Virus record (IMG/VR): IMGVR_UViG_3300024262_003767
DNA length: 64,000 nt
From: a virus
Reading direction: 5' to 3' (one strand)
Below, piece by piece: positions 3,690-55,134 of the stretch. The stretch's first letter is position 1. Each line of letters starts with the position of its first letter. A model generated the notes under the pieces. The model was not told the origin of the DNA. It was given only the letters and a program-made list of their open reading frames with translations, and did not search any database. The translations under genes and the position numbers were made by a program.

Positions 3690-4088
3690 TTAGTAATAAT
3701 TTATATAATTTACAATTGGTAAAAATAAATTTTTAGGGAAATTTTTCCAATCAAACCATCCAATTTCTGTACATTTTTCAGGTTCCATAATTTTGGCATC
3801 ATACGATTTAGATTGACACCTTACAAAAATTGTAATATAATGCAAATCCTCTTCAATAAACATATCATTAGTAAATCTATCAACTTGTAAATTGATGATA
3901 TCTAGTCCTGTTTCTTCTTTTGCTTCTCTGATTGCACAATCTACAATTGTTTCAAATTTGTCTAATTTTCCACCAGGGAAACTCCAGGTTCCTTCGCTGT
4001 GAGCACCTTTTCTTTTCATTAGAAGAACTTTACCATCGTAATCTTCTATTATAACACCTACGCCTATGTGTGGTCTATTACATTTCAT
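3690..4088 (-). CDS. Nudix hydrolase
   Basis: Nudix box GGKLDKFETIVDCAIREAKEETGL (GX5EX7REUXEEXGU). Confidence 0.8.
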   Translation of the reverse strand: MKCNRPHIGVGVIIEDYDGKVLLMKRKGAHSEGTWSFPGGKLDKFETIVDCAIREAKEETGLDIINLQVDRFTNDMFIEEDLHYITIFVRCQSKSYDAKIMEPEKCTEIGWFDWKNFPKNLFLPIVNYINYY

Positions 4089-4705: not shown

Positions 4706-5215
4706 TTAAATGTTATTTTGTCTAATTATTTCTTCGAAAATAGTTGATTTTAAATCTTCATACAAATCTTCAAGTGAATTATTAATTTTCTGAGATGTTC
4801 GTATCACTCTTGTTTGTATTATTACATCATCTTTTCTTTCATATTCTGGATCTATACCAACCACTAATCTCATTGCTGTAGGTAAATATTTGCCATATTC
4901 AAATAATGTAATAGGATTTAGTGAACCTTTAGAAAACCAAAAAAGTATAATATTTGATTCTTTTAATTTATTATGTTCCCAAATGATTTGTTCTTTTAAT
5001 TTATTTCTTGATATTTTCTTTGACATTTTCTTCCGTCTCGGATTAAAAATGTCCGTGTGTTCAAACATATTTTTAGTTTGTGGATATTTTTCAGACTTTA
5101 TCTTTTCAATTATTTCATTTTGCCAATTTGGACAATTTGAAATTCCACCTGCTAAAAATAATTTAATTTTATTCAGGCTTTTAAGTTTACTCGGGGCTTC
5201 TAATATTTTTAACAT
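4706..5215 (-). CDS. Nucleoside 2-deoxyribosyltransferase / Rcl(DNPH1)-like protein
   Basis: N-terminal KLFLAGGIS resembles the NDT IYFGAGWF motif; ILFWFSKGSLNPITLFEYGKYLPTAMRLVVGIDPE aligns with the NDT catalytic-Glu region (..VGLGMELGYALSQGKYVLLVIPDE). Confidence 0.45.
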   Translation of the reverse strand: MLKILEAPSKLKSLNKIKLFLAGGISNCPNWQNEIIEKIKSEKYPQTKNMFEHTDIFNPRRKKMSKKISRNKLKEQIIWEHNKLKESNIILFWFSKGSLNPITLFEYGKYLPTAMRLVVGIDPEYERKDDVIIQTRVIRTSQKINNSLEDLYEDLKSTIFEEIIRQNNI

Positions 5216-5216
5216 T

Positions 5217-5651
5217 TTAATAGTCTGTTATTAATTTTCCAATTAGATGATCATATTCGTGTTGAATTATACGTGCCATAACACCTTCAAATTCTTGTTG
5301 TTTATACTCCCATGCTCTATTGTGATATTGTATTCTAACTCTACCTTTTCGTGTGACAGTTATTGGTATATCAGGCACACTCAAACAACCTTCAGTCATT
5401 TGTTCTGAATGACCAAATGCGTATATTTTAGGATTTATATATGTTTCCTCAAAACCTTCATATGAAACAATAAATAGGTTTAAATTTTTACTAACTTGTG
5501 GTGCTGCTAATCCAACCCCAGTTGATGATCTCAAAGTTTCAAACATATCCGATATTAACTTTTTAGAATGTTCATTATTTATAACATCTATGTTTGGTTT
5601 TCTTAATATACCTCTTGGATCTTGATTATATTTTATTACATCTAATATCAT
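5217..5651 (-). CDS. def: Peptide deformylase
   Basis: All three PDF motifs: GVGLAAPQ, EGCLS, QHEYDHL (HExxH). Confidence 0.9.
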   Translation of the reverse strand: MILDVIKYNQDPRGILRKPNIDVINNEHSKKLISDMFETLRSSTGVGLAAPQVSKNLNLFIVSYEGFEETYINPKIYAFGHSEQMTEGCLSVPDIPITVTRKGRVRIQYHNRAWEYKQQEFEGVMARIIQHEYDHLIGKLITDY

Positions 5652-5657
5652 TATTTG

Positions 5658-6491
5658 TTATATAATTTTTAATTTTTTAAGTTTATCTTTATCATAAACT
5701 TCTATTTTTTTGTCTCTATATTGTTTTTTAAAAGCAAGATATTTATCTTTTGCATCATCTCTCCACCAGCCTTTAACTTCAACATATAAATCACAATCAA
5801 TAAGGTAAAAATCTGGTCTATATGTTCCTTCAGCATTATTATAATTGATAGGAAATGCTTCTGGTTCAAAGAACCATTCTATGTTATTTTTATCCAAATA
5901 AGTTGCATATTTTATTTCCCAAGAACTTCTCATCCACACAGAATCACCATTTTTACATTTATACCATTCACCTTTACCATGATAACATTTACCATAAAAA
6001 TTAGATTCCTTACCTCTTTTTACATTTTTACTTTTATTGATTAGCATTTTTTGATATCTTATGTTTGCTTCTATTTCGCCATATTTTTCTAACCAAACAC
6101 TAAATACTGAACGACCATACATTGGATTTTTATCACCAGACATTTTGACACTTATCTTTTTTTTAGTTTTGTCTGAATGATAATTACCTATGTTAGATTG
6201 ACTTATTTTTTTCTTTACCTCGTCTGTTCTATGCTTACCTTTAAAATGATGTGTATTATTTTTGTGCCATTCGATAAGTTTTTCAATCTTAACATCTTTA
6301 TTTGTATTCGCATTCACTTTATTAGAACACGATAAGCATAGATCATTTTTAACTGCATATCTATATTTTTTTTCTACTTCAGCATCACAATCTTTACATT
6401 TCCAAATTACAGTCTTTTCGCTACTTGGTTTCAAATCATTTGAATAATACCCAAACATATCCTTTGTTTTTTGTTCTAAAATAATACCCAT
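5658..6491 (-). CDS. Homing-endonuclease-like protein: Zn ribbon, NUMOD3 repeats, and a PD-(D/E)xK-like C-terminus
   Basis: WKCKDCDAE..CLSCSNK; NUMOD3-like KGKHRTDEVKKKISQSNIG and HSDKTKKKISVKMSGDKNPMYG; C-terminal YRPDFYLIDCDLYVEVKGWW. Confidence 0.6.
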   Translation of the reverse strand: MGIILEQKTKDMFGYYSNDLKPSSEKTVIWKCKDCDAEVEKKYRYAVKNDLCLSCSNKVNANTNKDVKIEKLIEWHKNNTHHFKGKHRTDEVKKKISQSNIGNYHSDKTKKKISVKMSGDKNPMYGRSVFSVWLEKYGEIEANIRYQKMLINKSKNVKRGKESNFYGKCYHGKGEWYKCKNGDSVWMRSSWEIKYATYLDKNNIEWFFEPEAFPINYNNAEGTYRPDFYLIDCDLYVEVKGWWRDDAKDKYLAFKKQYRDKKIEVYDKDKLKKLKII

Positions 6492-8675: not shown

Positions 8676-9188
8676 TTATTTCAGGTAAATAGGATCAACG
8701 TGATCAACTAACCATACACCATTTTCTGATTGATAAAATTTAATTTTATCAACAATCATTGGATAAGTATCAATTTTGAAGATATATGGAGTATCATTTT
8801 TACAATATCTATTTGCAACATCTAAAGCAGTATCATAATCAGCACTTAGATGTACATGATTTCTTTTCATTTTAGAAAGTCCATTTTTTCTAATTGATTT
8901 AACATTTCTAGATGCTGTGCCGTGATATAAAAATTTTGGTGGCATCTTTGATTTCAATTCAACATCAACTTTTAAAGAATGTCCTTGATTTGCTCTAATT
9001 TTAGTTTCATCTTCATTAAAACTAAATCTTTTCTTATCATTATTATCTACAATCCATTGTAAATCTTCAAATGATATATTAACTTTATTCAATAAATCAT
9101 CAACATCAACCCAACCATTTTTATCCATAGACAAATCTTCTGGGTTATGTCTTAATAAATAACTTATTTGTATTCCTTTATTTTTCAT
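8676..9188 (-). CDS. kptA: RNA 2'-phosphotransferase Tpt1/KptA
   Basis: LSYLLRHNPEDL...NGWVDVDDLL, RANQGHS, HGTASRNVKSIRKNGLSKMKRNHVHL, matching Tpt1 family conserved blocks. Confidence 0.8.
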   Translation of the reverse strand: MKNKGIQISYLLRHNPEDLSMDKNGWVDVDDLLNKVNISFEDLQWIVDNNDKKRFSFNEDETKIRANQGHSLKVDVELKSKMPPKFLYHGTASRNVKSIRKNGLSKMKRNHVHLSADYDTALDVANRYCKNDTPYIFKIDTYPMIVDKIKFYQSENGVWLVDHVDPIYLK

Positions 9189-10275: not shown

Positions 10276-10515
10276 ATGAAAACAATGAAAACTATGCTAA
10301 TAATTTTAGCAATCCTAATGTTAGGAACAACACTTGGAACATCAACACCAAAAGTAAATGAATCTATTTTTGATTTTCCTGAAGAAGAATATATTGATGA
10401 TATTCCTTTTGATACAGATAAGGTAATTAACCAGGACACTTTTAAAATGGAAGAAGAAGGTTATATTGATGATATTCCATTTAATACAGAAAAAGTTGTA
10501 GAAGAATTATCATAA
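10276..10515 (+). CDS. Secreted small protein with a tandem acidic repeat (start re-assigned to the internal ATG)
   Basis: Signal-peptide-like MKTMKTMLIILAILMLGTTLG; repeats EEEYIDDIPFDTDKV / EEGYIDDIPFNTEKV. Confidence 0.4.
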   Translation: MKTMKTMLIILAILMLGTTLGTSTPKVNESIFDFPEEEYIDDIPFDTDKVINQDTFKMEEEGYIDDIPFNTEKVVEELS

Positions 10516-11070
10516 TTCCTCTACAACTATATTTGTCTTATTGTGTTCGTGATCTGAATAAATATATTTACTTCCAAATAATGGCACTTCTTTCAAATTA
10601 TCTTTTACATACTTACCCCCCATTCCTTTCTTAACATAAGCAATTGTCATGTGTGCATGATAATCTGGATGATTATTTGTGTATTCAAATCTAAAGCACA
10701 TAGTCTTATTAAGTTCTCTTAACTTATCTGAGTGAATATCAAATTTAACAACATCATATTCATCTTGTTCAAATATTGTTATATCACCTCTCATAATATC
10801 ATCTATATCTTCCAATTTAGGTAAATATGTTTTGATATCTTTTGCTATACCATCATAGTGATGAAATCCATATAAAATTGTACAATGTGCCTCATCTTCA
10901 TATCCATAATCATTTGTATCATCATCATCTTGTGATGTGTAAATATCTTCTTCTGGTATCATTCTTCTAATAAATTCGATCCAATTACTAAAAGAAAAAT
11001 ATAACATCAGACAACCTAATTTTGGTTTATCATCTTCCATATAGTTATCAAATTTTAGTATTTCAGCCAT
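10510..11070 (-). CDS. 2H phosphoesterase superfamily protein (LigT/CPDase/Acb1-like); start re-assigned to MAEILKF
   Basis: Two H-x-T-x motifs (AHCTILYG and AHMTIAYV) about 65 aa apart. Confidence 0.65.
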   Translation of the reverse strand: MAEILKFDNYMEDDKPKLGCLMLYFSFSNWIEFIRRMIPEEDIYTSQDDDDTNDYGYEDEAHCTILYGFHHYDGIAKDIKTYLPKLEDIDDIMRGDITIFEQDEYDVVKFDIHSDKLRELNKTMCFRFEYTNNHPDYHAHMTIAYVKKGMGGKYVKDNLKEVPLFGSKYIYSDHEHNKTNIVVEEL

Positions 11071-11120
11071 AATTTTAATGCTTTTTCTTTTATATATAAA
11101 TAAAAATATTTTTTGTTTAA

Positions 11121-11684
11121 ATGACTGAAAATTTAATAATTGTTGATGTACAACCAACATATAACAAATTTATAGATTTTGATATTGGTGAATTTGTTAG
11201 TTGGATAAATAACTCATCTTTTGATGAGGTTTTTTGTTTATATAATGGTCCTGAATTAGGTTATGAAGATGATGAATGGAGAATATCAAATTGGTATTAT
11301 GATTGGGGATTAGATAGGGATATAAGTTTTAGATTTTTTGAAAAATCTTATGGTTGGTTTCGTGATTTTATGGAAGATATGGATGATGATAATATAATTT
11401 CTATTGGTAAATATATGATAGAACACGACATATGGGATTCGAGATATTTTAAAAAGAAAGATATAAAAATTTTAAAAGATAGAGGAATAAGTACAAGGTA
11501 TTTAGGTAAAGAAAGTAGAGTAATGTATATACCTGAATTAAAAGATTACTTATCAAATAATATATATACTAACGAAGAAATTATTATTTGTGGTGGTGGT
11601 GTCGATGAATGTTACAAAGAAGTTAATATGTTATTGGAAATGATGGGATATAAATTTAAAGAAAAAATAAAATTTGTCTATTAA
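11121..11684 (+). CDS. Isochorismatase-like hydrolase (weak)
   Basis: N-terminal IIVDVQPTY and C-terminal IIICGGGVDECYKEV...GYKF resemble isochorismatase-family motifs. Confidence 0.3.
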   Translation: MTENLIIVDVQPTYNKFIDFDIGEFVSWINNSSFDEVFCLYNGPELGYEDDEWRISNWYYDWGLDRDISFRFFEKSYGWFRDFMEDMDDDNIISIGKYMIEHDIWDSRYFKKKDIKILKDRGISTRYLGKESRVMYIPELKDYLSNNIYTNEEIIICGGGVDECYKEVNMLLEMMGYKFKEKIKFVY

Positions 11685-27352: not shown

Positions 27353-28216
27353 TTAATTTAATTCACCTTCCCAAACAATTTTATATTCATATTTACCTGG
27401 TAGTAGTATAATTTCTCTTTGATTTGTATGGTAATATTGTGTTGGTAATTTCTGTACGTCAACTAGTACATCTTTAGGTTGTACTTCCATCATAATAACA
27501 AAAGGTGGTGATGATGGTTGTTCATCCACAAATCTTCTAGCCACTAATATATTTGTAGTCCAAGATGTCGACATATTGAAATCGGATATAACTTTTTCAC
27601 CAACTTTGTATGGTGGGGTTTTTTTTGAAAAATGTTTTATTTGAACTTCTTCAATACCTTTATAAATCTTTAAAGGTTTATCTGGTTTAAAAGGTTTTAA
27701 TTCGTCTATAATATCTTGTGTTAATTTTGATAATAACAAAGAGCCAGAACCTATATATGAATATAACCAATCATCAGTTTTTTCAGATAATTCAACATTT
27801 ATCCTTTCAGGTGTATGTTTATCATATTTAGTAAATCCTCCAATGTAACGAAAAGATATCACATCTCCATTTTTAATTCTTGCTAACCATTCACCTGTTA
27901 TTGAATGTTTATAAAAATAACCAGAATAATCATCAACATCAACTTCTTCATCTTCACTAAATCCAAAAAAATCTACAATTTGTTTATATAGAGGTTTTTT
28001 TGTTTTAATTTGATAGATATATTCACTATTTATATCAGATGCGTCTGCTCTATTTGTTAAATAGATTCTTTTTAAATGATTTAGATTACTAAAATCTATA
28101 TCTTCTAATTTTAATGGTTCATCAGAATATAAATATAAATTTCCATTATATGTTTTTTGATCGTAATCTACTTCATTATAATCTACAAGTTCAAATAATT
28201 TGAATTTAGTTATCAT
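27353..28216 (-). CDS. Hypothetical protein with a possible C-terminal ADP-ribosyltransferase-like domain
   Basis: FNMSTSWTT (STS) followed about 55 aa later by NQREIILLPG (Q-x-E); upstream IYKG in the position of the YRG Arg; overlaps the CCA-enzyme gene by 11 nt. Confidence 0.3.
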   Translation of the reverse strand: MITKFKLFELVDYNEVDYDQKTYNGNLYLYSDEPLKLEDIDFSNLNHLKRIYLTNRADASDINSEYIYQIKTKKPLYKQIVDFFGFSEDEEVDVDDYSGYFYKHSITGEWLARIKNGDVISFRYIGGFTKYDKHTPERINVELSEKTDDWLYSYIGSGSLLLSKLTQDIIDELKPFKPDKPLKIYKGIEEVQIKHFSKKTPPYKVGEKVISDFNMSTSWTTNILVARRFVDEQPSSPPFVIMMEVQPKDVLVDVQKLPTQYYHTNQREIILLPGKYEYKIVWEGELN

Positions 28217-38389: not shown

Positions 38390-39280
38390 TCAAAATATAA
38401 GGCTACTTTTCGTTTCCCAACGTGAATATAATTTTCCGTTCTCCCTCAATATCAAATATTTGTATGTATCTTTAACTTCTTCATTCATACAATCATCATC
38501 AACTACGACAGACATTTCATCAATATCGTAAATTGATGCACCAAAAGGAAGTTTACCTAAATATCTACCATTCTTTACAACATATTCAGAAATTTTATCA
38601 TAAAATATTGAAGATGCGTTTTCTTCAATCCATTTATCAATTTCATTGTTTGTTTCTGATTTGTAAAGTTTCCTAAATGTAATCTGATCTGCACCCATTT
38701 CTTTACATTTATTTAAAACTTCATCAACTGAATATTTATCATAATCATCAACAAGATTTAATGATAATCTAAGATTGAAATCATATTTTTTGATAAGAGA
38801 AATAATTTCATTCATATCAAATTTCAATTTATCTTTACATCCAATTATACTCATATTTTTTTCATTATCAAAAACATTAGATATTGAAAGTGAGATTGTT
38901 GTTACTCCAATATTCCTTAAAAATTTAAGGCTTATATCATCTAATAACACACCTGTACTTTGAATTTCAATACTTTTAAAAGGTGTAATCAATTTTGAAT
39001 TTGTCTCAGAAAAGAATTTCAAAAATGGAAAATTTTGTGTTGGTTCACCTGTACCTGTTAATATAACAACATTACAACCATTATCTCTTGCAAATTGTAA
39101 ACGATTAAAATAATCTTTATATTCAATTGTAGTAGTATCTACATCAACCCAAAATTTATCTTTCTTTTTTAAACAATTAGAAACTTTATCACTATAAGGA
39201 TTTGTGTGCGTCCTACTCACACAAAATTTTACACATTTGTTTTTTGTAGGGACAACAATCGATAAACTCTGTATATTCAT
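38390..39280 (-). CDS. Radical-SAM-like protein with an atypical Cys motif
   Basis: CVKFC (CxxxC, third Cys not in the canonical position) and VVILTGTGEPT glycine-rich SAM-motif-like block. Confidence 0.25.
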   Translation of the reverse strand: MNIQSLSIVVPTKNKCVKFCVSRTHTNPYSDKVSNCLKKKDKFWVDVDTTTIEYKDYFNRLQFARDNGCNVVILTGTGEPTQNFPFLKFFSETNSKLITPFKSIEIQSTGVLLDDISLKFLRNIGVTTISLSISNVFDNEKNMSIIGCKDKLKFDMNEIISLIKKYDFNLRLSLNLVDDYDKYSVDEVLNKCKEMGADQITFRKLYKSETNNEIDKWIEENASSIFYDKISEYVVKNGRYLGKLPFGASIYDIDEMSVVVDDDCMNEEVKDTYKYLILRENGKLYSRWETKSSLIF

Positions 39281-42205: not shown

Positions 42206-44050
42206 TTAAGTTGCTCTTATTTGCTCTGCTGGTGAACTTGTTACAGAACTTCGTGATTTCGTGTAAATTATTAACGTTTTACCTGCTTTTGGTTGCCATC
42301 CAGTATTTCCAATATTTACTGGTTTAATATTTGATGTATTAGATGAACTTAATGAACCATCATCCGTTATAGTTATACCATCTTCAACAAATCTAACATC
42401 TTCATAAAATGTGAACGTACCTGAGTATAATAATGTTTTTAATTTGTTGGCTTCTAACGCTATATAAAAATTATTATATCCCTTATCATATATTTTCTTT
42501 AGTACATTTAAATCATTTTCAGCAATTTTAAAATTAACTATACCTAATGTGAAATTATTTGTAGATTCTTTAAAAATTGATTTTTCAATTGATTCTGAAT
42601 CAGATTTAAATATTAATTTAACATCTGAACCTTTTGTTAATTCTGATAAATTAAAAGGTTGTAAACTTTTATTATTTATTAATTTTCCAAGTTTAAATTG
42701 AATCACATTATCAAACGGGGTTATAATTATGTTCAATAACCCCATACCTTTATAATTTTGTGGTTGTGAACTCTTTGGACTATTTACAATAACTTTACCA
42801 ACATCTATTAGAAGAGGATAAGGTATTTTTCTAATTTCAGTCACAAGAGGCTTAGTGCTAAAATCCCTATTAAGTTGAATTTGCTCTGGTTTAGCATTGT
42901 ATATCTTTAAATTATTAATATTTCCAACATCAAGAGAAATTAATCTTTTACCATATTTATGAATACTATCCCTAATTCCAAGTGTTGTAAATCTCACAAT
43001 TTGTGACATATCAACCAAATCAACAACTCTCATTGTAACTTTAATGGCAGCGGTTGTATTAGAGAATGTCATAATTGGTCTATAATATAATTTCTTTGTG
43101 AATATAGCTAAACCTAATGTTGGATCTTCTTCAACAGAAAATGTTTGTTTTGACGTTTGAATATTTTCTTCATAAAGATATACATCATATTCAAATTTTA
43201 CTCGTCTACCTTTTGTATATACATCTTCAATAAATTCGTTAAGATTCTCATTTGATTCACCATAAGTGCCATATATTTCAAAAAAATCACCTTCAGTAGA
43301 TTCTTCGACTTTAACTGCAAGAGTTTGATATTCAGGTGTTTGTGGTATAGACATTCTATACTCATTTGTGGCATAATAGTAATTCACCCCTAATATCGTA
43401 TCTTTACTAGTTAAAAATCTAAAATCTAAGAATATAGGTGCAGTTTGACTTAATCCTTCATGACTTGTTGTTAAATTATAATTTATAGTATTAGGTATTA
43501 CACTATTTGTGTTATCACTTAAAACTCGTTGATTAGATACGTAATTTATAGAAGGCACCTCAAATTCAAAATATTTACCCCATTCAATTTCATCATATAT
43601 GAATGGTATTGCCAAATTCAATAATGTTGAACCACTACGAGCATCTGTATTATCATAGAAAATGTTACTTAGATTATATGTTTTTGTATTATCAAATCCA
43701 TAAGCGAATGTTTTTAAATAAAATCCAACATAACCTTCTGTTTCAAAATTGTAATTTGTTGGTAAATAAACTCTTACCCTATCATATTGTATTGGTGCTG
43801 AACTATAATCTTGTTCTTGTAGATAATTATAACTATTATCAAATACGGTATATTTTCTTAAAACTGGATCGATTTGAAATAAGTTTCTACTTTTACTATT
43901 TAAAAGTGATGTTGAAAGGAAATTTTTCGTATTGTTTTCGTTAATATTTGTTATTATCTGATAATTCTCTGATATAAAATTATTACTATCAAATCCCCAC
44001 TCAATTAATACTTTTGGGTTTATTTTTATATACTTAGAAACAGTCGCCAT
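42206..44050 (-). CDS. Large hypothetical protein (614 aa; Asn/Tyr/Ser-rich, possible structural protein)
   Basis: Composition typical of phage structural proteins; TATATATATTAAA box upstream. Confidence 0.3.
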   Translation of the reverse strand: MATVSKYIKINPKVLIEWGFDSNNFISENYQIITNINENNTKNFLSTSLLNSKSRNLFQIDPVLRKYTVFDNSYNYLQEQDYSSAPIQYDRVRVYLPTNYNFETEGYVGFYLKTFAYGFDNTKTYNLSNIFYDNTDARSGSTLLNLAIPFIYDEIEWGKYFEFEVPSINYVSNQRVLSDNTNSVIPNTINYNLTTSHEGLSQTAPIFLDFRFLTSKDTILGVNYYYATNEYRMSIPQTPEYQTLAVKVEESTEGDFFEIYGTYGESNENLNEFIEDVYTKGRRVKFEYDVYLYEENIQTSKQTFSVEEDPTLGLAIFTKKLYYRPIMTFSNTTAAIKVTMRVVDLVDMSQIVRFTTLGIRDSIHKYGKRLISLDVGNINNLKIYNAKPEQIQLNRDFSTKPLVTEIRKIPYPLLIDVGKVIVNSPKSSQPQNYKGMGLLNIIITPFDNVIQFKLGKLINNKSLQPFNLSELTKGSDVKLIFKSDSESIEKSIFKESTNNFTLGIVNFKIAENDLNVLKKIYDKGYNNFYIALEANKLKTLLYSGTFTFYEDVRFVEDGITITDDGSLSSSNTSNIKPVNIGNTGWQPKAGKTLIIYTKSRSSVTSSPAEQIRAT

Positions 44051-46380: not shown

Positions 46381-46914
46381 ATGAAAGTAATAGTAATTAA
46401 TGGTACAGCACAAACTGGAAAGGATAAGTTTGTCTCTTTTTTTAATGAAGTCGCAACCGAACTAAGAGTAAAGAATTATTCATCAATTGATAGAGTTAAA
46501 CAAATAGCCGAAATATGTTTTGGTTGGGACACTAAAAAGAATGATAAATCTAGAAGATTTTTATCAGAAATTAAAAGAATTTGGACTGATTTTAATGATG
46601 GTCCGTTTGAGGTTATTAAAAATCAAATAGATGTTGATATAATATATTCAAAAAATAATAATAAAGATGTAAGTAAAAATATCTATTTTATACATATACG
46701 AGAACCAGAAGAAATAAAAAAAGTTAAAAAATATTACGATATTTTCTGTGTTACACTTTTAATAAAAAAAGATGTAGATTTTATTCCTGATAATGATTCA
46801 GATAAAAATGTTGAAAATTTTGATTATGATTATATTGTAGATAATAATGGTTCAGAAGAAGAATTAAAAATACGAGCCGAAGAATTTCTAACACACATAA
46901 AAAAAACCTTGTAA
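46381..46914 (+). CDS. Deoxynucleoside monophosphate kinase-like (T4 gp1-like)
   Basis: MKVIVINGTAQTGKDKFVSFF resembles T4 dNMP kinase MKLIFLSGVKRSGKDTTADF. Confidence 0.5.
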   Translation: MKVIVINGTAQTGKDKFVSFFNEVATELRVKNYSSIDRVKQIAEICFGWDTKKNDKSRRFLSEIKRIWTDFNDGPFEVIKNQIDVDIIYSKNNNKDVSKNIYFIHIREPEEIKKVKKYYDIFCVTLLIKKDVDFIPDNDSDKNVENFDYDYIVDNNGSEEELKIRAEEFLTHIKKTL

Positions 46915-46935
46915 GAAATTACAAGGTTTTTTTAT
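46900..46935. terminator. Bidirectional intrinsic terminator between the dNMP-kinase-like gene(+) and clpC(-)
   Basis: AAAAAACCTTGTAA-gaaa-TTACAAGGTTTTTTT, overlapping the stop codon. Confidence 0.7.
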
Positions 46936-46955: not shown

Positions 46956-49472
46956 TTAGGCTTCTAAAAGTGGAGTTTCATCTTTTGGTGGTAATTCTTT
47001 ACTATTCAAATTAACAATAGTAATCTCACCATCTTTACTTCTAAGTGAAACTTTATCACCAATTTTAATTTCACCATTGAGAATAGCATCTGTTAGAGTA
47101 TCTTCAATGTGTCGTTGAATTGCTCTTTTCAATGGTCTTGCACCATATTCAGCATCCCATCCTTCTTCAAATAAGAAGTCTTTAAGTGACTTTGTGATAT
47201 TTACAACATAACCAATATCTTTAAGTCTATCGAGAGTTGTTTTAATTTCAAGGTCAATAATTCTGAAAATGTTGTCTTTTGAAAGAGCGTTGAACATTAT
47301 AAGTTCATCAACTCTATTAAGAAATTCTGGTGCAAATTTCTTTTTCAATTCTTTATCAATAACAGCGTTCTTCTTATCTTGAATGTTTTTGTTGGTGGCA
47401 TTTGTTTGAAATCCCATACCTGTACCAAAATCTTTAAGTTGTCTTGAACCTGTATTCGATGTCATTATGATAATTGCGTTTTTAAAATTAACTCTTCTAC
47501 CATAACTATCAGTAAGAATTCCATCATCAAGAACTTGTAGAAGTATATTAAATACGTCTGGATGCGCTTTTTCCATTTCATCAAGAAGAACAATTGAATA
47601 TGGTTTTCTTCTGATGGCTTCAGTTAATTCACCACCATCATCATAACCAACATATCCTGGAGGCGCTCCAATCAATTTTGAAACTGAATGTTTTTCCATA
47701 TATTCAGACATATCAATTCTAATGAGGTTTTCTTCTGAACCAAAGAGTTCTTTTGCTAGAACCTTTGCTAAGTAAGTTTTACCGACACCTGTAGCACCTA
47801 AGAACATAAATGTTCCGACAGGTTTTTTAGGATCTTTGATACCAATTCTACTACGTTTGATTGAACGAACAATTTTATCAACAGCATCATCTTGTCCAAT
47901 AACAATATTTTTCATTTTAGTTCCAAGATTTCTCAATTTGTTTGATTCATCATCATCAACAGCATCAAGTGGGATTTTGGTCATCATTGAAACAACTTCA
48001 GCAATATCTTCTTTTCCAACGATTTCACGATTTTCGTCCAATTTTTCGTTCCATTCCTCTTTCAATTTTTTCAATTGTTCTGTAAGGTTTCTTTCTTTAT
48101 CTCTCCAAGAAGCAGCTTTTTCAAATTTCTGTTCGTCAACACATTCAGTTTTCTTTTTCTCGGCTTCTGAAATTTTACTTTCAAGAATAGAAATAGCTTT
48201 AGGTTGATTTGAATTTGAATCTACATGAACTTTGGCACCAGCTTCATCCAAAGCGTCAATTGCTTTATCTGGCATAAATCTATCATTCATATATTTATCA
48301 GTCAATTTTACACAAGCTTCAATTGCTTCATCTGTGTACACGACTTTGTGATAATCCTCATATCTAACTTTGAGTTGTTTAAGGATTTCAATAGTTTCTT
48401 CAATGGTAGTAGGTTCTACCACAACTTTTTGAAATCTTCTTTCTAATGCACCATCTTTTTCAATATGTTTTCTATATTCTTCGAGAGTAGTTGCACCAAT
48501 ACATTGGAATGTTCCTCTTGCTAATGCTGGTTTTAACATATTAGATGCATCAAGTGAACCTTGTGCGCTACCAGCACCAATAATTGTATGAATTTCATCA
48601 ATAAAAAGTATAATGTTTGATGTTTCTTCAATTTCTTTGATAATTCCTCTTAAACGAGATTCAAATTCGCCACGATATTTTGTTCCTGCAACAAGGGCAC
48701 CCATATTAAGGGTGAAAATTCTTTTATCTTTAATGTTGTTTGGCACTTTACCATCAACAATTCGTTGTGCTAAACCTTCAACAATTGCAGATTTGCCAAC
48801 TCCAGGCTCACCTATAAGAATAGGATTATTTTTCTTTCTACGTGAAAGAATTTGACTTATTCTTTTAATCTCAATTTTTCTACCAACAACTGGATCGAGA
48901 GAACCTTCTTTTGCTTTTTTGGTAATATCTTCACCAAATTGTTCAATAAGTTTAGGTTTCTTATTTTTATTTGATGCTGTTGTATCACTATGATGCATTT
49001 CTGGATCATCCCAATCTGCACTATTACTTATTCCAGTAACTTTTTCGTGTAATTTTTTAATTATCTCACCTTCATCAATTTTTGAAAACATATCATTTAA
49101 AATATTATTTTTAGTATTTAAGAGTGAAAGTAATACTACATCAGTATCAACATATTTGACATCCATTTCATCAATTATTCCAACACAATTTTCAAGTATG
49201 TCCGTAACTTCTTGTGATAATTGTACTTTATCTTTTCTCTCTGCCAATTGAATATGCTCCATTTGGTTTCTCATTACCAAAGCATCTTGAATAGTTTTTT
49301 TGATTGTTGGAATACGAATATCAATTTCTTGAAGAACTTGATAAGCACGATAATTTTCATCCTCAATTAGAGCCAAAAACAAGTGTTCTGGTTCAATTTC
49401 AGATGATTTATATTGCAACGCAATCGTCTTACTATTCTTAATCACATTATCTACGTCTTTGTTAAAGTTCAT
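46956..49472 (-). CDS. clpC: ClpC-type AAA+ unfoldase (Clp_N, two AAA modules, UVR-like M-domain)
   Basis: Clp_N repeats ([16 protein letters not shown]); Walker [19 protein letters not shown] and GATGVGKT; UVR motif [11 protein letters not shown]; sensor-2 [10 protein letters not shown]. Confidence 0.9.
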
Positions 49473-49538
49473 AATTAATTTTTTTAGTTATAATTTATAT
49501 ATTTAATTTTCTTTATAGGAGTTTTCCTCTTTTGTTTA

Positions 49539-49760
49539 TTAAAATAAATTGAAAATATCAATGTTTTTTGTTTCTCTCTCAAATATCATACCAAGATAAA
49601 ATAATGGAAAAAAGATAATAGATGCTACCCAAATATATATTCCTCGTACAAACCAAGCTGGTTTGATAAATGGTATCGCCCAATTTTTATATAAGTCCCA
49701 ATCTTCTTTCACAAAATTTAGATAAATATATAACATATATTTTGCTATAAATATTTTCAT
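49539..49760 (-). CDS. Small membrane protein
   Basis: Hydrophobic WVASIIFFPLFYLGMIF. Confidence 0.3.
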   Translation of the reverse strand: MKIFIAKYMLYIYLNFVKEDWDLYKNWAIPFIKPAWFVRGIYIWVASIIFFPLFYLGMIFERETKNIDIFNLF

Positions 49761-49777
49761 TCGTTTTTTATTATTTT

Positions 49778-50080
49778 TTAATCTTTCTCAATCGTGAGTG
49801 TTAATCCTTGTTCTTCAAGTGCGGATTTAAAAGGTTTTAATTTATCTTTTGAACCAGTTTTTAAGATACTCGCACCTTTCATATGAACTGTCCAAGCTGT
49901 GTTTTCAGCTTTTTCTGGACTAAAACTCATAATTGATATCAGACATAAAATTACATGATCAAAAGAATTGACTTCATCATTCCATAAAATCAATTTATAG
50001 ACTTTATCATCCGATGGTTCAATACCCGCTTTACTGAGTATTTCTTCTAATGTTTTTGTTATTTCTTTTGTGTCGCTCAT
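49778..50080 (-). CDS. clpS: ClpS adaptor protein
   Basis: YKLILWNDEVNSFDHVILCLISIM...AENTAWTVHMKGASIL matches ClpS (YKVILLNDDYTPMEFV...ATQLML.VH..G). Confidence 0.85.
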   Translation of the reverse strand: MSDTKEITKTLEEILSKAGIEPSDDKVYKLILWNDEVNSFDHVILCLISIMSFSPEKAENTAWTVHMKGASILKTGSKDKLKPFKSALEEQGLTLTIEKD

Positions 50081-51375
50081 ATTCCTAATTCCTCTTTATA
50101 TAGTTTAACAGTATTAAAGTTTCCAGTATATTTTCCTTCACTATCAGACAACTTTACACAATCTCTCCAAACTTTCATTCCTTCAGGTAAGGCTTCAGAC
50201 ATCTTAATTACCATATTTAAAGGTTTTGCCTTTTTTAAAGTTTCCATAAAATAACCACCATTTGGATTTGGTATCGATTCCCAATTAAATTGGTTATGAT
50301 AATCTTCATCATAGATACCATTTTGTGAAACCAAAACAACATCGTTTGATAGCCAAGTACCTATACCATAGGAAGATAATATTTTATTTCTCACACAATT
50401 TTCAATTGTTTTAATTTTTTCTATACTATTTATAGAGTCAGAAAATACAATTGTTTTTGGAATCATACCATTAGGCATTTTAATACCTTTATTTATGTAA
50501 TGTTTGATAGTTTTTTCTGCGAATTCAACAGGTTCACCAGAATCTTGACGAACACCGTCAAATAATTTTGAATAAAATAAATCAAAACCTTCAAAGAAAA
50601 TATCTGTTGTATATGTATCAGAAAGTGCAATTCCTAATGCTCCTTTATAAGCATCTACCCAACGACCCATTCCTACACGATTAGCCATCATCACACCGTA
50701 TTTAGCAGCGTGAAACATAAACCATTCGTGTGCCTGAGTTCCAATTGCTTTAATACCATATTTACGAGCAAACATCACATTGGATGTACCAACGATTGTT
50801 TTTGGTGCAACTTTCAAAAATTCTTCAATAACTCTACCTTGGATAAATTTTGAAAATCTTCTGCGGGTTCCAAATTCAGATAATGAAATTCCAAGTTCAG
50901 ATAATTGTTTAAATTTTTCATCCCAAATTTCCATTGACTTTTCTAAGTCAACTTCTTCACCTGAGAAAAGGAAGAATAATTCTGATATTAAAGCCATTAA
51001 TTGAACTTCCCAAAATATAGTTTTGTGCCAAAAACCTTCAATTTCTATTTCTAATACACCATTTTTTTGAGTAACTTTAACTTCATTAGGATCATATTGA
51101 TAACTCCTAAGATACATATAATAGGAAATATCAAAGAATGGAAGTTTACTTTTCAAATGTTCTTCAATTTCTTTGGTAAATTTTAAATTTTTGAAATGAG
51201 CAATCTGTTCTTTTAACTCGGTAGCAAAACCTTTTGGAAATTTACGGGTTTTATCTCTGAGTATGAACTTATACTTAACCTTAGCGTTAGGATAGTGTTT
51301 TAGTATGGCAAATTGCATGAAATACTTATAGGCGTCCTGATCATCAAATTCGGTAATTATTGGTTTAAATCTCAT
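50077..51375 (-). CDS. pncB: Nicotinate phosphoribosyltransferase (PncB/NAPRT)
   Basis: Colinear with E. coli PncB: DDQDAYKYFMQFAILKHY, LPFFDISYYMYLRSYQYDPNEVKVTQKNGVLEIEIEGFWHKTIFWEVQLMALISE, EFGTRRRFS, VGTSNVMFARKYGIKAIGTQAHEWF. Initially mistaken for NAMPT. Confidence 0.9.
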   Translation of the reverse strand: MRFKPIITEFDDQDAYKYFMQFAILKHYPNAKVKYKFILRDKTRKFPKGFATELKEQIAHFKNLKFTKEIEEHLKSKLPFFDISYYMYLRSYQYDPNEVKVTQKNGVLEIEIEGFWHKTIFWEVQLMALISELFFLFSGEEVDLEKSMEIWDEKFKQLSELGISLSEFGTRRRFSKFIQGRVIEEFLKVAPKTIVGTSNVMFARKYGIKAIGTQAHEWFMFHAAKYGVMMANRVGMGRWVDAYKGALGIALSDTYTTDIFFEGFDLFYSKLFDGVRQDSGEPVEFAEKTIKHYINKGIKMPNGMIPKTIVFSDSINSIEKIKTIENCVRNKILSSYGIGTWLSNDVVLVSQNGIYDEDYHNQFNWESIPNPNGGYFMETLKKAKPLNMVIKMSEALPEGMKVWRDCVKLSDSEGKYTGNFNTVKLYKEELGI

Positions 51376-51376
51376 A

Positions 51377-52078
51377 TTATAAAAATTTTCCTATTGTTTC
51401 TGATTCAATTTCAATATCTTTTACTGAATTAATAACAAGTATATTATAATCGATTACTAACATTTCAATATATTTATCTAATTCTTCTTCTGTTCCTAAC
51501 CCTTTTGTTGCGGCAAGATTTAAGATAACTTGAAATCCAGCATTGGACAAATCCTTTAAAGTTTCACCTACACAGTAATTAAGTGCTAATCCACCAACAA
51601 TAATTGTTGTTATATTGTGATAATTATAAAATTCAATCAACCCAGTCGAAATTTTACCTTCTTGATCGTGATAAACACTTGTGTAAGGGTGTAGGTGTGG
51701 ATCGACTCCCTTATTTACAATAAAGTTAAAATCTTCAATTTTACCAAGTTCATCAAGAATTTCCGAACCAAATGTTCCTGATTCACAATGCAAATTCCAA
51801 AACATATCAACATTTTTGTGTCCAACTATAGGTGTGAATTGAGGATTTTCTTCAGTTGCTACCCATAACGCATTTTTTGAGTGCATATCTCTTGATATGG
51901 TTTTAACAATTCCTATTAAATTTTGTTTTGCTAATTCTTTACCAATTAGGTGTCCATCAGGTACAGGTAGTTCATTAGGACAGAGTGGAGTAAATCCCTT
52001 TTGAGGGTCAACGTTGTGACTTGCTGTTCTTTCGCTAATCACTCTAATCTTATTCGTATTTTCAAAACTTATATTCAT
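51377..52078 (-). CDS. pncA: Nicotinamidase (PncA, isochorismatase family)
   Basis: VDPQKGF (Asp), NLHCESG, KGVDP (Lys), IIVGGLALNYCV (Cys), in PncA order. Confidence 0.8.
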   Translation of the reverse strand: MNISFENTNKIRVISERTASHNVDPQKGFTPLCPNELPVPDGHLIGKELAKQNLIGIVKTISRDMHSKNALWVATEENPQFTPIVGHKNVDMFWNLHCESGTFGSEILDELGKIEDFNFIVNKGVDPHLHPYTSVYHDQEGKISTGLIEFYNYHNITTIIVGGLALNYCVGETLKDLSNAGFQVILNLAATKGLGTEEELDKYIEMLVIDYNILVINSVKDIEIESETIGKFL

Positions 52079-53033
52079 AATATTTTATTTATTTTTATGT
52101 TACAAAAGTAATACTTTTTTTAATAATAAAAAAATTGTATTGTTAAAGAATAACAATACAATTTTTATTCGTGAATTCTTTTAAAGTTTTCAATATATTT
52201 AGACATATTTACGGAGCCTATAATATTTTGAGTGTGAATTATACATATTGGTAATTTTTCATTATTATCAATACAGTAATCACACAACCATTTGACACAC
52301 TCCATACCTGTTTTTTCGGTGTATTTTGAGTAATCAACATCATCTTGATTTAATAAATATTGATAATGTTCATCTGCTAAATCGTGATCAAAACTAATCA
52401 TTTGAGGTAAACCATTTAACTCAATACATTTAATAAATTGATCGTAAGACCTAACAATAACCCAATCGAGATTTATATAGTCCATATTTTGTGTATAGTA
52501 ATATGCGTCCTCATAATTTCCATGAGGGGAATATGGAACTCTTTCATCATCTAAAAACAAATTGTACATAATTTTACCTTTTAAGTGTGCTAAATTAATA
52601 AAAAAAATTGGAATAAAAAATTACAGTTTCTGTAACATAGTTATTATTTCGGTTAATGTTTCATCGTAATTGAGAATTCTTTTGTGTAAACTCTCATATC
52701 TTTCGTGGAAAAAGACATCACGATTTTTTACTGTAATATATGTGTCGTCTTTTTTGAAATTTATCTTAAATTGGTAGTTTCTATTATCATACTCAATATT
52801 ATGAATAACTTCATTATATTGAAAATCTCTCCACGTTCTACTAAATCTAGTTTTAATAACAAATTTGCATGGTTCATTTTTAAAAACCTTATTTAGATTT
52901 TCCAGTTCAATACGTATATGTCGTCCTCTTTGGTTATACATATTATATTCATCTATTTTTGTTATCATAATCACTATATATAAAAAAAACCTCCCAAAAA
53001 ATTGAGAGGTTTTTTAAGATTAAACATTAAAGT

Positions 53034-54539
53034 TTACTTCTTATCAGGTTTTTCAGTTTTTTTGGTTTTTGCTTTTTCTTCAAGCAATTTAACCATATCT
53101 GCATTACCTTCTAAGAATCCAGGCATATTCTGACCAACCATTTTAAAAGCGTCATCCATTGGAGGAACAGATTTTAAAAGGTTTGTCAACCAATTAGAAG
53201 TAGATGATCCAGCACCTTCACCACCATTACCAGTATCCCAAACTGTGATGTTATCAAATTTAATTTCTTTGATAGCTTCAACTTGAGTTCTAATAATTTC
53301 TGGAAGTTTGTCTGCAATCATCATTTGGACAGCCTTATCAGGATCACCACCCGCTGCACTTACATAAGCGGCAAAACCTTCGGCTTGTTTTGTCATTTGT
53401 TCAAACGTACCACGAGCCTGAGCATCCATCATAAAGAATACTCCATCAGCCTTACCTTTTTCAACTCTACGAATTCTTTCAGCTTCAGCCTCAGCATCTA
53501 CTTCAATTTTTTCTTTTTGAATCTGTGCAGGTACAACAATATCAGCGAATTTTTGAGAACGTTCTCTTTCTGCTCTCGCATCTTCAGCGATTTTCTCAGC
53601 TTTGTATGACTCTTCAAGAGCGTTTGCTGATTTTGTTTTTTGAGCAACGACAATTTTACGATCAGCCTCAGCTTCGGCTTCTCTCCTACCAGCAATAGAA
53701 TTTGCGATTTCAATAGCCGCTTTATTTTCACCATCAACAGCAGTTGAGTTAAAGGCTGCAGTATCAATTCTCATATTCTTATCTGCTTCTTTTTCACCAA
53801 TAACGGCTCTTGAATTAGCAGATGCGACTTTAATTCTTTGCTCTCTTTGAGCCTCAGCGACACCAATATCCCCATCTCTATCTTTCTCAGCAACTGATTT
53901 CTTTGCTTCGTTAATAGCCTGAGCCGCAGCTTCTTTACCAAGAGCCTCAATATAACCAGATTCATCATCAATATCTTTAATATTAACGTTGATAAGTTTC
54001 AAACCAACTTTCTTAAGTTCGTTTTCAACATTATCTTGAATCTTACTCAAGAAAGCGTCACGGTTAGCGTTGATTTCTTCAATAGTAAGAGTTGCGATAA
54101 TCGCCCTCATTTGACCAAAAATAATATCCTGAGCCAACGCTACGATTTGTGTATCTTGAAATCCCAACATTCTTTCAGCGGCATTAATTTTGAATTCATC
54201 TTCTGATGAAATCGCAACGGTGTACGTTGAAGGAACATTTACACGAATATTCTGATTCGAAAGTGCAGATTTCAAATCAACTTCAAAAGACATAGGTTTC
54301 AGAGATAAGAACTTGTATTCCTGAATGATAGGCCAAACAAATACACCACCTCCGTGATATACTCTGGCGCTGGCGTGTCCTGACCGTCCTTGTGAGTCGG
54401 CTTTTCCCTTCACACGCCCATATACAACTAAAAGTTGATCAGAAGGGCACCTTTTATATCTTGCTTTAAAAGTAAAGAAGAATGCGAAAAAGGCAATCGC
54501 TGCTAATCCAATGATAATAGCAATCGAAAATGATACCAT
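53034..54539 (-). CDS. SPFH/band-7 flotillin-like protein (YqiK type) with a long Ala/Glu-rich coiled-coil tail
   Basis: N-terminal TM helix, SPFH core, EA-rich repeats AEAEADRKIVVAQ..., 501 aa. Confidence 0.85.
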   Translation of the reverse strand: MVSFSIAIIIGLAAIAFFAFFFTFKARYKRCPSDQLLVVYGRVKGKADSQGRSGHASARVYHGGGVFVWPIIQEYKFLSLKPMSFEVDLKSALSNQNIRVNVPSTYTVAISSEDEFKINAAERMLGFQDTQIVALAQDIIFGQMRAIIATLTIEEINANRDAFLSKIQDNVENELKKVGLKLINVNIKDIDDESGYIEALGKEAAAQAINEAKKSVAEKDRDGDIGVAEAQREQRIKVASANSRAVIGEKEADKNMRIDTAAFNSTAVDGENKAAIEIANSIAGRREAEAEADRKIVVAQKTKSANALEESYKAEKIAEDARAERERSQKFADIVVPAQIQKEKIEVDAEAEAERIRRVEKGKADGVFFMMDAQARGTFEQMTKQAEGFAAYVSAAGGDPDKAVQMMIADKLPEIIRTQVEAIKEIKFDNITVWDTGNGGEGAGSSTSNWLTNLLKSVPPMDDAFKMVGQNMPGFLEGNADMVKLLEEKAKTKKTEKPDKK

Positions 54540-54567
54540 AATTTTAAAATTTAAATGTTAATAATTA

Positions 54568-55134
54568 TTAATTTGATTTACTTACTTTAACTAAATTATC
54601 TGTGATAAATTCAGTTACAATTACTTGTGAATTTGTATCAATTTTTTCACCAGTTTCTGAAAGAGCGTCAATAGTTCTCAATGCGCCACGAATGGACATT
54701 TGAATTTTTCCTCTCTTATCTTTTCCTGGTATAACCAGATACACGGTTGCAGGTTGTTTCAATACATCATTTTTATCGATGTCATTTGGTGTTGCTTGAA
54801 GTTTTTTGAAACCGAACATAATAGATGCGAAGATGATAGTTAGAACTAAACCAGAACCAACCGAAATTATAATTGATAGCCAAGTATTATAACCTTGTTC
54901 AATGCAAAAAACACCTACCCAACCAAAGAATGCTAAAAAATTAATCAAACTTCTTAGAGTAAATGCTTCACCCATTATACCACTTGCACCATCAACATCA
55001 AAATCACCATCTACGTCACCTATACCATCAGCATCCATATCTGAATCCATTCCGAAAAAGGCAGAACCATTCAAAAATAAAAAAATCGCACCGAATACGA
55101 TTGCGATGATGTAAAATACTGTTAAAAGTGTCAT
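54568..55134 (-). CDS. NfeD-like membrane protein (partner of SPFH)
   Basis: N-terminal TM helices and a C-terminal OB-like beta domain (ATVYLVIPGKDKRGKIQMSIRGALRTIDA...VIVTEF); sits immediately upstream of the SPFH gene. Confidence 0.65.
   Translation of the reverse strand: MTLLTVFYIIAIVFGAIFLFLNGSAFFGMDSDMDADGIGDVDGDFDVDGASGIMGEAFTLRSLINFLAFFGWVGVFCIEQGYNTWLSIIISVGSGLVLTIIFASIMFGFKKLQATPNDIDKNDVLKQPATVYLVIPGKDKRGKIQMSIRGALRTIDALSETGEKIDTNSQVIVTEFITDNLVKVSKSN

Follow-up and report, generated by a model that had tools for sequence, protein, structure and literature searches.

A predicted pncA-pncB nicotinamide salvage operon in a huge-phage lineage

Three experimentally validated routes are known by which phages rebuild nicotinamide adenine dinucleotide (NAD+): NARP1, which combines Adps and Namat via ADP-ribose pyrophosphate (ADPR-PP), NARP2, which takes nicotinamide to nicotinamide mononucleotide (NMN) and on to NAD+, and NARP3, which starts from nicotinamide riboside and uses PnuC and NadR. 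Here we describe a pair of adjacent genes, pncA (nicotinamidase) and pncB (predicted ATP-dependent nicotinate phosphoribosyltransferase), in a 64,000-nucleotide stretch of viral DNA, IMG/VR virus record IMGVR_UViG_3300024262_003767 (the whole stretch analysed is hereafter the window). Like NARP1-3 the pair would provide phage enzymes for NAD+ restoration, and NARP1 and NARP2 also begin with nicotinamide; however, none of the three proceeds via nicotinate and nicotinate mononucleotide (NaMN), none needs NadE, and the window module is a predicted one. Pfam scans of the open reading frames (ORFs) of the window identified none of the NARP1-3 domains (Adps, Namat, Nampt/NadV, NMN adenylyltransferase, PnuC, NadR), and the sole phosphoribosyltransferase in the window is an equivalog-level PncB. 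A large survey of viral NAD systems dealt with NadV, NadM and NadR only.

Closer to this locus are the "NAD-jumbo phages", in which Preiss-Handler genes, including a pncB-nadD-nadE cluster, were reported bioinformatically in 2024 (Microbiome, PMC11662467). These are jumbo or huge phages as here, many with predicted Bacteroidota hosts, which encode pncB, are said to encode pncA, and have been proposed to boost NAD+ for phage NAD-consuming enzymes; they are defined by a complete pathway, e.g., the pncB-nadD-nadE of Kuafu_71, whereas the window shows pncA-pncB only (PMC11662467). The initial annotation of this DNA had presented the pair as a solution different from the known NadV- or NARP-based ones, which is correct with respect to NARP1-3, as these use no PncA or PncB, but not with respect to the jumbo phages already published. 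The annotation of phage G also includes a PncA-like protein, and the literature searched yielded no experimental work on PncA or PncB from a phage. Our reading, to which we assign a probability of roughly three in four, is that the window carries a functional bacterial-type pncA-pncB operon of a huge (Mahaphage-like) phage, probably one of Bacteroidota, that recycles nicotinamide toward NAD+.

The two enzymes and their bacterial counterparts

Both genes lie on the minus strand. The first, pncA (51377-52078), encodes a 233-residue protein of the Isochorismatase fold predicted to convert nicotinamide to nicotinate and NH3, and the second, pncB (50077-51375), encodes a 432-residue protein with NAPRTase_N and NAPRTase domains predicted to form NaMN from nicotinate and phosphoribosyl pyrophosphate (PRPP). 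They meet at a TAA-T-ATG junction with a spacer of 1 nt; the initial annotation had placed these adjacent ORFs and their gap exactly.

PncB matched the Pfam families NAPRTase_N (PF17767, 7.9e-32) and NAPRTase (PF04095, 2.3e-45), and a search against NCBIfam placed it above the cut-offs of both the equivalog TIGR01514 (358.6 bits, cut-off 269.55) and PRK05321 (381.1, cut-off 379). All seven NCBIfam families that matched it at E ≤ 0.01 were NAPRTase models, with no NAMPT or NadV family among them, and the six solved structures it matched were likewise all NAPRTases, the best being 2im5 (1.8e-70). Its motif GTQAHEW, which contains H216, aligned with GTVAHEW of the yeast protein (1vlp) and GTHPHEW of the P. 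gingivalis NAPRTase (2im5). The histidine of the GTxAHE motif, His219 in Salmonella PncB, is autophosphorylated and couples ATP hydrolysis, and we take H216 of the window protein to be this phospho-histidine position. Named relatives of PncB are annotated as nicotinate phosphoribosyltransferase, the nearest being from Bacteroidota and Ignavibacteriae, while PHROGs held no family for PncA or PncB at E ≤ 1e-5. Based on these matches we classify the 432-residue protein as PncB (EC 6.3.4.21), distinct from NAMPT/NadV and Namat, in agreement with the initial annotation, which had separated it from NAMPT.

PncA scored 35 bits against the Pfam family Isochorismatase (PF00857, cut-off 27), and it belongs to the subfamily found in Pseudomonas-type pncA-pncB-nadE operons, unlike the E. 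coli type. A single-sequence search of the PDB (E ≤ 0.01) gave six matches, all nicotinamidase-type, although one of them, 3r2j, was deposited merely as an "Alpha/beta-hydrolase-like protein". When the PDB was searched with a PncA family profile, the best seven chains (7e-50 to 7e-21) were six deposited as nicotinamidase or pyrazinamidase/nicotinamidase together with 3r2j, and the next match, a generic isochorismatase hydrolase (2e-10), was weaker by at least 10 orders of magnitude. Among 19 aligned relatives the triad D24/K123/C169, the metal ligands D64/H66/H97 and residue A165 are all invariant; the triad matches that of nicotinamidases with known structures, and H97 aligned to His94 of yeast Pnc1 (counted in the PDB alignment). 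An Asp-x-His...His metal site separates nicotinamidases from other isochorismatase-family hydrolases. We accept the 233-residue protein as a nicotinamidase, PncA (EC 3.5.1.19), and both this assignment and the functional coupling of the two genes draw on the fact that its bacterial relatives sit in pncA-pncB(-nadE) operons. The initial annotation had allowed for a PncB-like ORF lacking catalytic residues; GTQAHEW with its H216 is present, and the residues of PncA are intact too.

A scan of bacteria, with one genome per species, identified 80 loci with a PncA of the window subfamily (40–49% identity) in Pseudomonas, other Gammaproteobacteria, Spirochaetota, Bordetella and Listeria. Of these, 74 have a same-strand pncB as the next gene after pncA and one has it upstream instead (75/80 linked); nadE is also present in 57/80. 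There are apparent PncA-PncB fusions, each a single ORF, in an Endozoicomonadaceae metagenome-assembled genome (MAG) (L039, 6001-7834, 611 residues) and in an Oceanospirillales bacterium (L045, 6001-7870, 623 residues), and a bacterial-looking 518-kb scaffold carries adjacent homologues of PncA and PncB (52% identity each). The window pair shares its PncA subfamily, gene order, strand and predicted chemistry with the Pseudomonas pncA-pncB1-nadE operon, a host operon that is upregulated by PA5oct infection. It differs from that operon in having no third gene nadE, clpS and a clpC-like gene following instead, and its pncB is of another, Bacteroidota-like clade: the window PncB is 44–55% identical to Bacteroidota/Bacteroidales PncB versus 31–38% to the partners of gammaproteobacterial pncA. 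Judged by these comparisons, the phage pair is a captured bacterial pncA-pncB operon.

Conservation of the pair in a huge-phage lineage

The window, with a GC content of 27–28%, is part of a genome that is probably >400 kb. It is colinear over >20 kb with a 531-kb ENA contig (L028), the shared genes being those for DeoC, SbcD/SbcC, an M16 peptidase, PncA, PncB, ClpS, a small ORF, ClpC and a 614-residue ORF, and it is colinear, also over >20 kb, from DeoC to ClpC with a second ENA locus (L029), the PncA of which is also found on contigs of up to ~400 kb; protein identities between the window and these two loci are ~50–64%. Colinearity extends to viral contigs in IMG/VR, of which one measures 501 kb. 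Relatives of 501–531 kb are ERZ27297473 k141_239578 in ENA and IMGVR_UViG_3300044712_000732 in IMG/VR. The 614-residue ORF (42206-44050) matches only huge phages of 462–735 kb (LR756500, LR756501/503 (735 kb), LR756502, LR756504 and LR745206), and when 20 kb of its sequence were compared by megablast with 50,697 phage records, no near-identical record came up for the window. The window also encodes a thymidine kinase, SbcCD, a CCA-adding-type enzyme, a hybrid histidine kinase, several homing endonucleases and many ORFs of unknown function; neither tRNA genes nor RNA genes that Rfam would detect, such as rRNA, are present in it, and Pfam scans of its ORFs gave no ribosomal structural protein.

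Shine-Dalgarno motifs occur at 5 of 75 gene starts against a 4% background and the leaders are ~60% A, which is consistent with a Bacteroidota-type translation style. As the nearest named PncB relatives come from Bacteroidota and Ignavibacteriae, this near-absence of Shine-Dalgarno motifs and the A-rich leaders suggest a Bacteroidota-like host. An S1-domain protein, NusG, a ribosome hibernation factor, a peptide deformylase and a class II tRNA-synthetase-like protein are encoded in the window as well.

All examined relatives that carry both pncA and pncB (55–90% identical) have the gene order pncA, pncB, clpS, small ORF, clpC. The spacer between the first two genes, 1 nt in the window, reaches 70 nt in L036 and ~0.4 kb in both L119 and the P0127 contig. 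In L235, the closest relative, it measures 1.0 kb and holds a NUMOD3 homing-endonuclease gene and a MerR-like gene on the opposite strand, and in L028 and L029 small ORFs fill a gap of 1.5–2.3 kb. Because the spacer varies among relatives with inserted ORFs, we read the pncA-pncB gap as a landing site for mobile ORFs, with the window as the compact state. In L235 (526-3000) a LAGLIDADG-type gene also occupies the gap between pncA and the upstream cREC gene (see below), placing mobile ORFs on both sides of pncA.

Ratios of nonsynonymous to synonymous substitution (dN/dS) were calculated by the Nei-Gojobori method for the window versus L235 and L036, and are approximate as dS is ~0.9. They were 0.21 and 0.14, respectively, for pncA and 0.07 and 0.13 for pncB, comparable to those of clpS and clpC (0.08–0.09), and both genes are under purifying selection. 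The GC content and GC3 of pncA and pncB are within ~1 standard deviation of the window mean. The initial annotation had considered that the genes might be recently acquired, non-expressed cargo, and this genome-like composition, the conservation and the dN/dS values contradict that possibility; we ruled out recent inert cargo on these grounds.

The pncB gene has a history of its own in one relative, L119, the ClpS and ClpC of which are 88% and 86% identical to those of the window while its PncB (5063-6200) is just 37% identical to the window PncB and 72% identical to that of L028. In a neighbour-joining tree the window-type PncB falls with Bacteroidales-like sequences and the L028 type forms a separate deep branch. 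Based on these identities and this tree, a distant homologue appears to have taken the place of pncB at the same site with the function kept, and such a replacement would imply sustained selection for that function. More broadly in IMG/VR, pncB is present in the fetched flank of 28 of the 35 loci that have a PncA-like gene; these loci came from an alignment-based scan, a single-protein scan with the window PncA having found nothing.

Neighbouring genes and transcription signals

The pncB stop codon and the start of the following gene share 4 nt (ATGA), and because of this overlap we suggest that the two genes are co-transcribed and translationally coupled. This gene (49778-50080, minus strand) encodes a ClpS-like adaptor (Pfam ClpS, 1.6e-16), and it is followed on the same strand by a small conserved ORF of 73 residues (49539-49760), with homologues in L028 and L029 at the equivalent position (44–62% identity), and by a gene for an 838-residue ClpC/ClpB-like double-AAA+ unfoldase with Clp_N (46956-49472; Pfam domains, PHROG 4871 at 2.6e-260), which is syntenic in relatives and is the final gene of the co-oriented block begun by pncA. 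An N-degron adaptor and an unfoldase (46956-50080, minus strand) thus travel with NAD salvage genes, and a ClpS homologue is also found just upstream of PncB in two unrelated IMG/VR contigs of 344–348 kb (L003 and L004).

On the other side, the upstream neighbour of pncA encodes a cREC_REC protein (52165-52569, minus strand; PF20274, 4.3e-21). The cREC gene is immediately upstream of pncA in L033 and L036 and one or two genes off in L029-L031 and L235, and its product has been predicted in the literature to process ADP-ribose 1''-2'' cyclic phosphate (PMC9503650). Further upstream (53034-55134, minus strand) are genes for a 501-residue flotillin/Band_7 protein and, downstream of it, a membrane protein, which have a GC content of 0.38 and 0.33 versus a window mean of 0.28; this gene pair is present in the close relatives L033, L036 and L119, and the stretches fetched from L028 and L029 yielded no homologue.

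In the interval between the cREC gene and pncA there is an AT-rich hairpin with a U-run (52127-52166, minus strand; 16-bp stem, -16.9 kcal/mol, z = -3.9), and none of 200 shuffles folded as well. It is likely the terminator of the upstream gene, and for this reason pncA probably heads its own transcription unit. The block of pncA, pncB, clpS, the 73-residue ORF and clpC ends at a bidirectional terminator-like hairpin (46900-46933, both strands; 15-bp stem, with a T-run on each strand), and a strong terminator-like site (52984-53015) lies downstream of the flotillin-like gene and upstream of a 117-residue ORF and the cREC gene. Scanning the entire window against Rfam, NAD+ riboswitch families included, gave no match.

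Other enzymes that consume or relate to NAD are encoded at a distance from the pair. The initial annotation had listed an NAD-dependent DNA ligase (here 3-1280, minus strand, truncated by the window edge), a Tpt1/KptA RNA 2'-phosphotransferase (8676-9188, minus strand; Pfam PTS_2-RNA 1.9e-45, PHROG 5470 1.6e-57) and a Nudix hydrolase (3690-4088; 6.7e-20), and domain matches bore out all three. It had also listed a possible ADP-ribosyltransferase (27353-28216, minus strand), which we dropped: this ORF had no match in Pfam (E ≤ 1) or PHROGs and nothing meaningful in the PDB, leaving a loose YKG...STS...QxE likeness seen by eye only. A weak 2H/Acb1-like ORF (10510-11160), below the Pfam cut-offs, gives together with cREC and Tpt1 a hint of an RNA-repair or ADP-ribose clean-up set. 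Near it, a 187-residue ORF (11121-11684, plus strand) has isochorismatase-like motifs by eye, IIVDVQ on its N-terminal side and GGGVDEC on its C-terminal side; it had no Pfam or PHROG match, including at a relaxed threshold.

Pathway coverage, proposed role and alternatives

We propose that PncA would deamidate nicotinamide to nicotinate, and that PncB would then use PRPP and ATP, via a phospho-histidine intermediate, to convert nicotinate to NaMN, which would be adenylylated by NadD and amidated by NadE to give NAD+, both of these activities coming from the host or from phage genes outside the window. Expressed during infection, the pair would return nicotinamide toward NAD+ and so sustain the pool used by the phage ligase and Tpt1, which is where a selective benefit may lie. 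The nicotinamide would come from the phage Tpt1 and from nicotinamide-releasing NADases, host defence effectors included. Tpt1 consumes NAD+ and releases nicotinamide, the PncA substrate, together with ADP-ribose 1''-2'' cyclic phosphate, whereas the NAD-dependent ligase releases NMN and not nicotinamide; PncA and PncB therefore do not directly recycle the by-product of the ligase, which would gain solely via a larger NAD+ pool. The suggestion in the initial annotation that nicotinamide recycling could support both enzymes thus fits Tpt1 and does not fit the ligase in that direct form.

Several results weigh against this proposal. A search for pathway genes by Pfam scans of the window ORFs (no CTP_transf_like, no NAD_synthase) and by tblastn with phage NadE and NadR-like queries found no nadD, nadE, nadR or PRPP synthetase in the 64-kb window, which encodes steps one and two of the four-step route from nicotinamide, so that the pair alone cannot make NAD+; the initial annotation had overstated the pathway in this respect. 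As the 64 kb contain no nadD, nadE or nadR, NaMN must be completed by the host or by phage genes outside the window. PncA did not reach the cut-off of the E. coli-type equivalog PRK11609 (48.9 versus 174), and its substrate specificity is consequently read from residues and context only. There is no capsid, portal or terminase gene in the window, and for this reason its viral status rests on the synteny with large viral contigs. Finally, a scan for sigma-70-like promoters was at chance (46 found versus 47.8 expected), with no pncA-pncB promoter identifiable, and the Bacteroides-type -7 motif TAnnTTTG was not enriched in the window (136 found versus 126.6 expected); one such motif lies upstream of pncA (52103-52110), and as the motif is at chance level we did not use this site as evidence.

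NadE was also sought elsewhere in the lineage. None of the best 80 of >537 matches in a NadE-alignment scan of IMG/VR was on a lineage contig, a single-protein NadE scan of IMG/VR matched only the query itself, and the lineage contigs of 531, 501 and 400 kb were absent among the best 120 matches of a NadE protein search. Other huge phages have fuller sets. Of 25 IMG/VR loci found via PncB, 17 have NadE, 15 have a PncA of another subfamily and nine have a NadR-like gene, and a TonB-dependent receptor and a radical-SAM-like protein recur in these loci. LR756501 (735 kb; L034, 415260-446411) has PncB, NadE-like, NadR-like and PncA-like ORFs within ~8 kb, while the 2024 Microbiome paper credits it with nadD only (PMC11662467). 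One contig with a window-type PncB (64% identity) has the arrangement nadE-pncB-x-pncA. The huge-phage module with the order nadE-pncA-radical-SAM-like-pncB-(TonB-dependent receptor)-nadR-like resembles the window pair in lying on one strand and in its PncB (39–46% identical to that of the window), and differs from it in having a PncA of another subfamily (26–31%), in possessing NadE and a NadR-like adenylyltransferase/kinase, and in not being linked to ClpC. In several large viral PncB contigs (among them L011, 13018-14976, and L019, 5541-6566) we observed a TonB-dependent receptor (Plug and beta-barrel) and a NadR-like protein (cytidylyltransferase-like and AAA_28) encoded on the same strand, and such a set could, by analogy with NARP3, make up an uptake-plus-salvage route. 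A radical-SAM-like protein of ~300 residues (weak Pfam match) is also encoded in the window, 11 kb from pncB (38390-39280, minus strand); 17 of 25 other viral loci have a homologue immediately upstream of PncB (e.g., L022, 7747-8670), and the window copy is 42% identical.

Among other explanations for the pair, a possible one, raised in the initial annotation by analogy with known phage NAD-reconstitution pathways, though we lean against it, is that it was selected mainly to rebuild NAD+ from the nicotinamide produced by Thoeris, DSR, SIR2-HerA and SEFIR effectors rather than as a general booster. Phages benefit from NAD+ restoration when such defences act, as NARP1-3 demonstrate; those NADases release the PncA substrate as one of their products, the module occurs widely among large phages (the 28 of 35 IMG/VR loci above), and pncB seems to have been re-acquired after replacement. 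Set against this, the route from nicotinamide would take four steps with three ATP-consuming reactions, two of the steps are not encoded in the window, the ADP-ribose would be left unused, our literature searches found no tested phage PncA/PncB, and the neighbouring ClpS, ClpC and cREC are not known as anti-defence genes. A joint clean-up role of cREC and PncA-PncB is conceivable, and speculative. Extending it, we tentatively consider, by analogy with NARP1-3, that PncA-PncB might form the core of a fourth phage NAD+ reconstitution strategy, using the nicotinate/NaMN branch and host NadD/NadE together with the adjoining cREC: cREC would take the ADP-ribose cyclic phosphate and PncA-PncB the nicotinamide, so that both products are recycled and the phage tolerates NAD+ depletion by Thoeris, DSR or SIR2 as well as by its own Tpt1.

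It is unlikely that the two enzymes act uncoupled, with PncA mainly removing nicotinamide, a product inhibitor of NAD-consuming enzymes such as Tpt1, ADP-ribosyltransferases and sirtuins, or acting on another amide, and with PncB assimilating environmental niacin. The PncA subfamily does miss the E. coli equivalog cut-off, pncA and pncB stand 0.4–2.3 kb apart in relatives, with homing endonucleases and unrelated small ORFs between them, and pncB appears to have been exchanged independently of pncA; however, order and orientation are kept throughout the lineage and in 74 of the 80 bacterial loci, PncA-PncB fusions appear to exist, and PncB uses what PncA makes. It is very improbable that the pair is an ordinary host operon on a fragment of a low-GC bacterial chromosome or on a mis-binned host contig, since the window's cell-like genes (ClpS/ClpC, NusG, ribosome hibernation factor, peptide deformylase, hybrid histidine kinase), its want of a capsid or terminase gene and one near relative in an NCBI MAG are countered by relatives of up to 501 kb classed as viral in IMG/VR, by a 614-residue ORF matching published huge phages only, by the many homing endonucleases, SbcCD, Tpt1, thymidine kinase and PHROG matches, by the lack of tRNA, Rfam-detectable RNA genes and, in Pfam scans, ribosomal structural proteins, and by the fact that such cell-like genes are typical huge-phage content.

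The nicotinamide-recycling operon favoured here is an ordinary bacterial operon captured by phages, the presence of which in jumbo phages has already been published, and what this analysis adds is comparative: the linkage to clpS and clpC, the apparent in-place replacement of pncB, the hot spot for homing endonucleases and the finding that the window has neither nadD nor nadE. Bacterial immunity and phages compete centrally over NAD+, and of the three validated pathways that rebuild it none is of the Preiss-Handler type. A conserved, selected and, it appears, repeatedly re-acquired nicotinamidase/NAPRTase pair in the largest known phages is a candidate for another route, and this route, if true, would depend on the NadD and NadE of the host.

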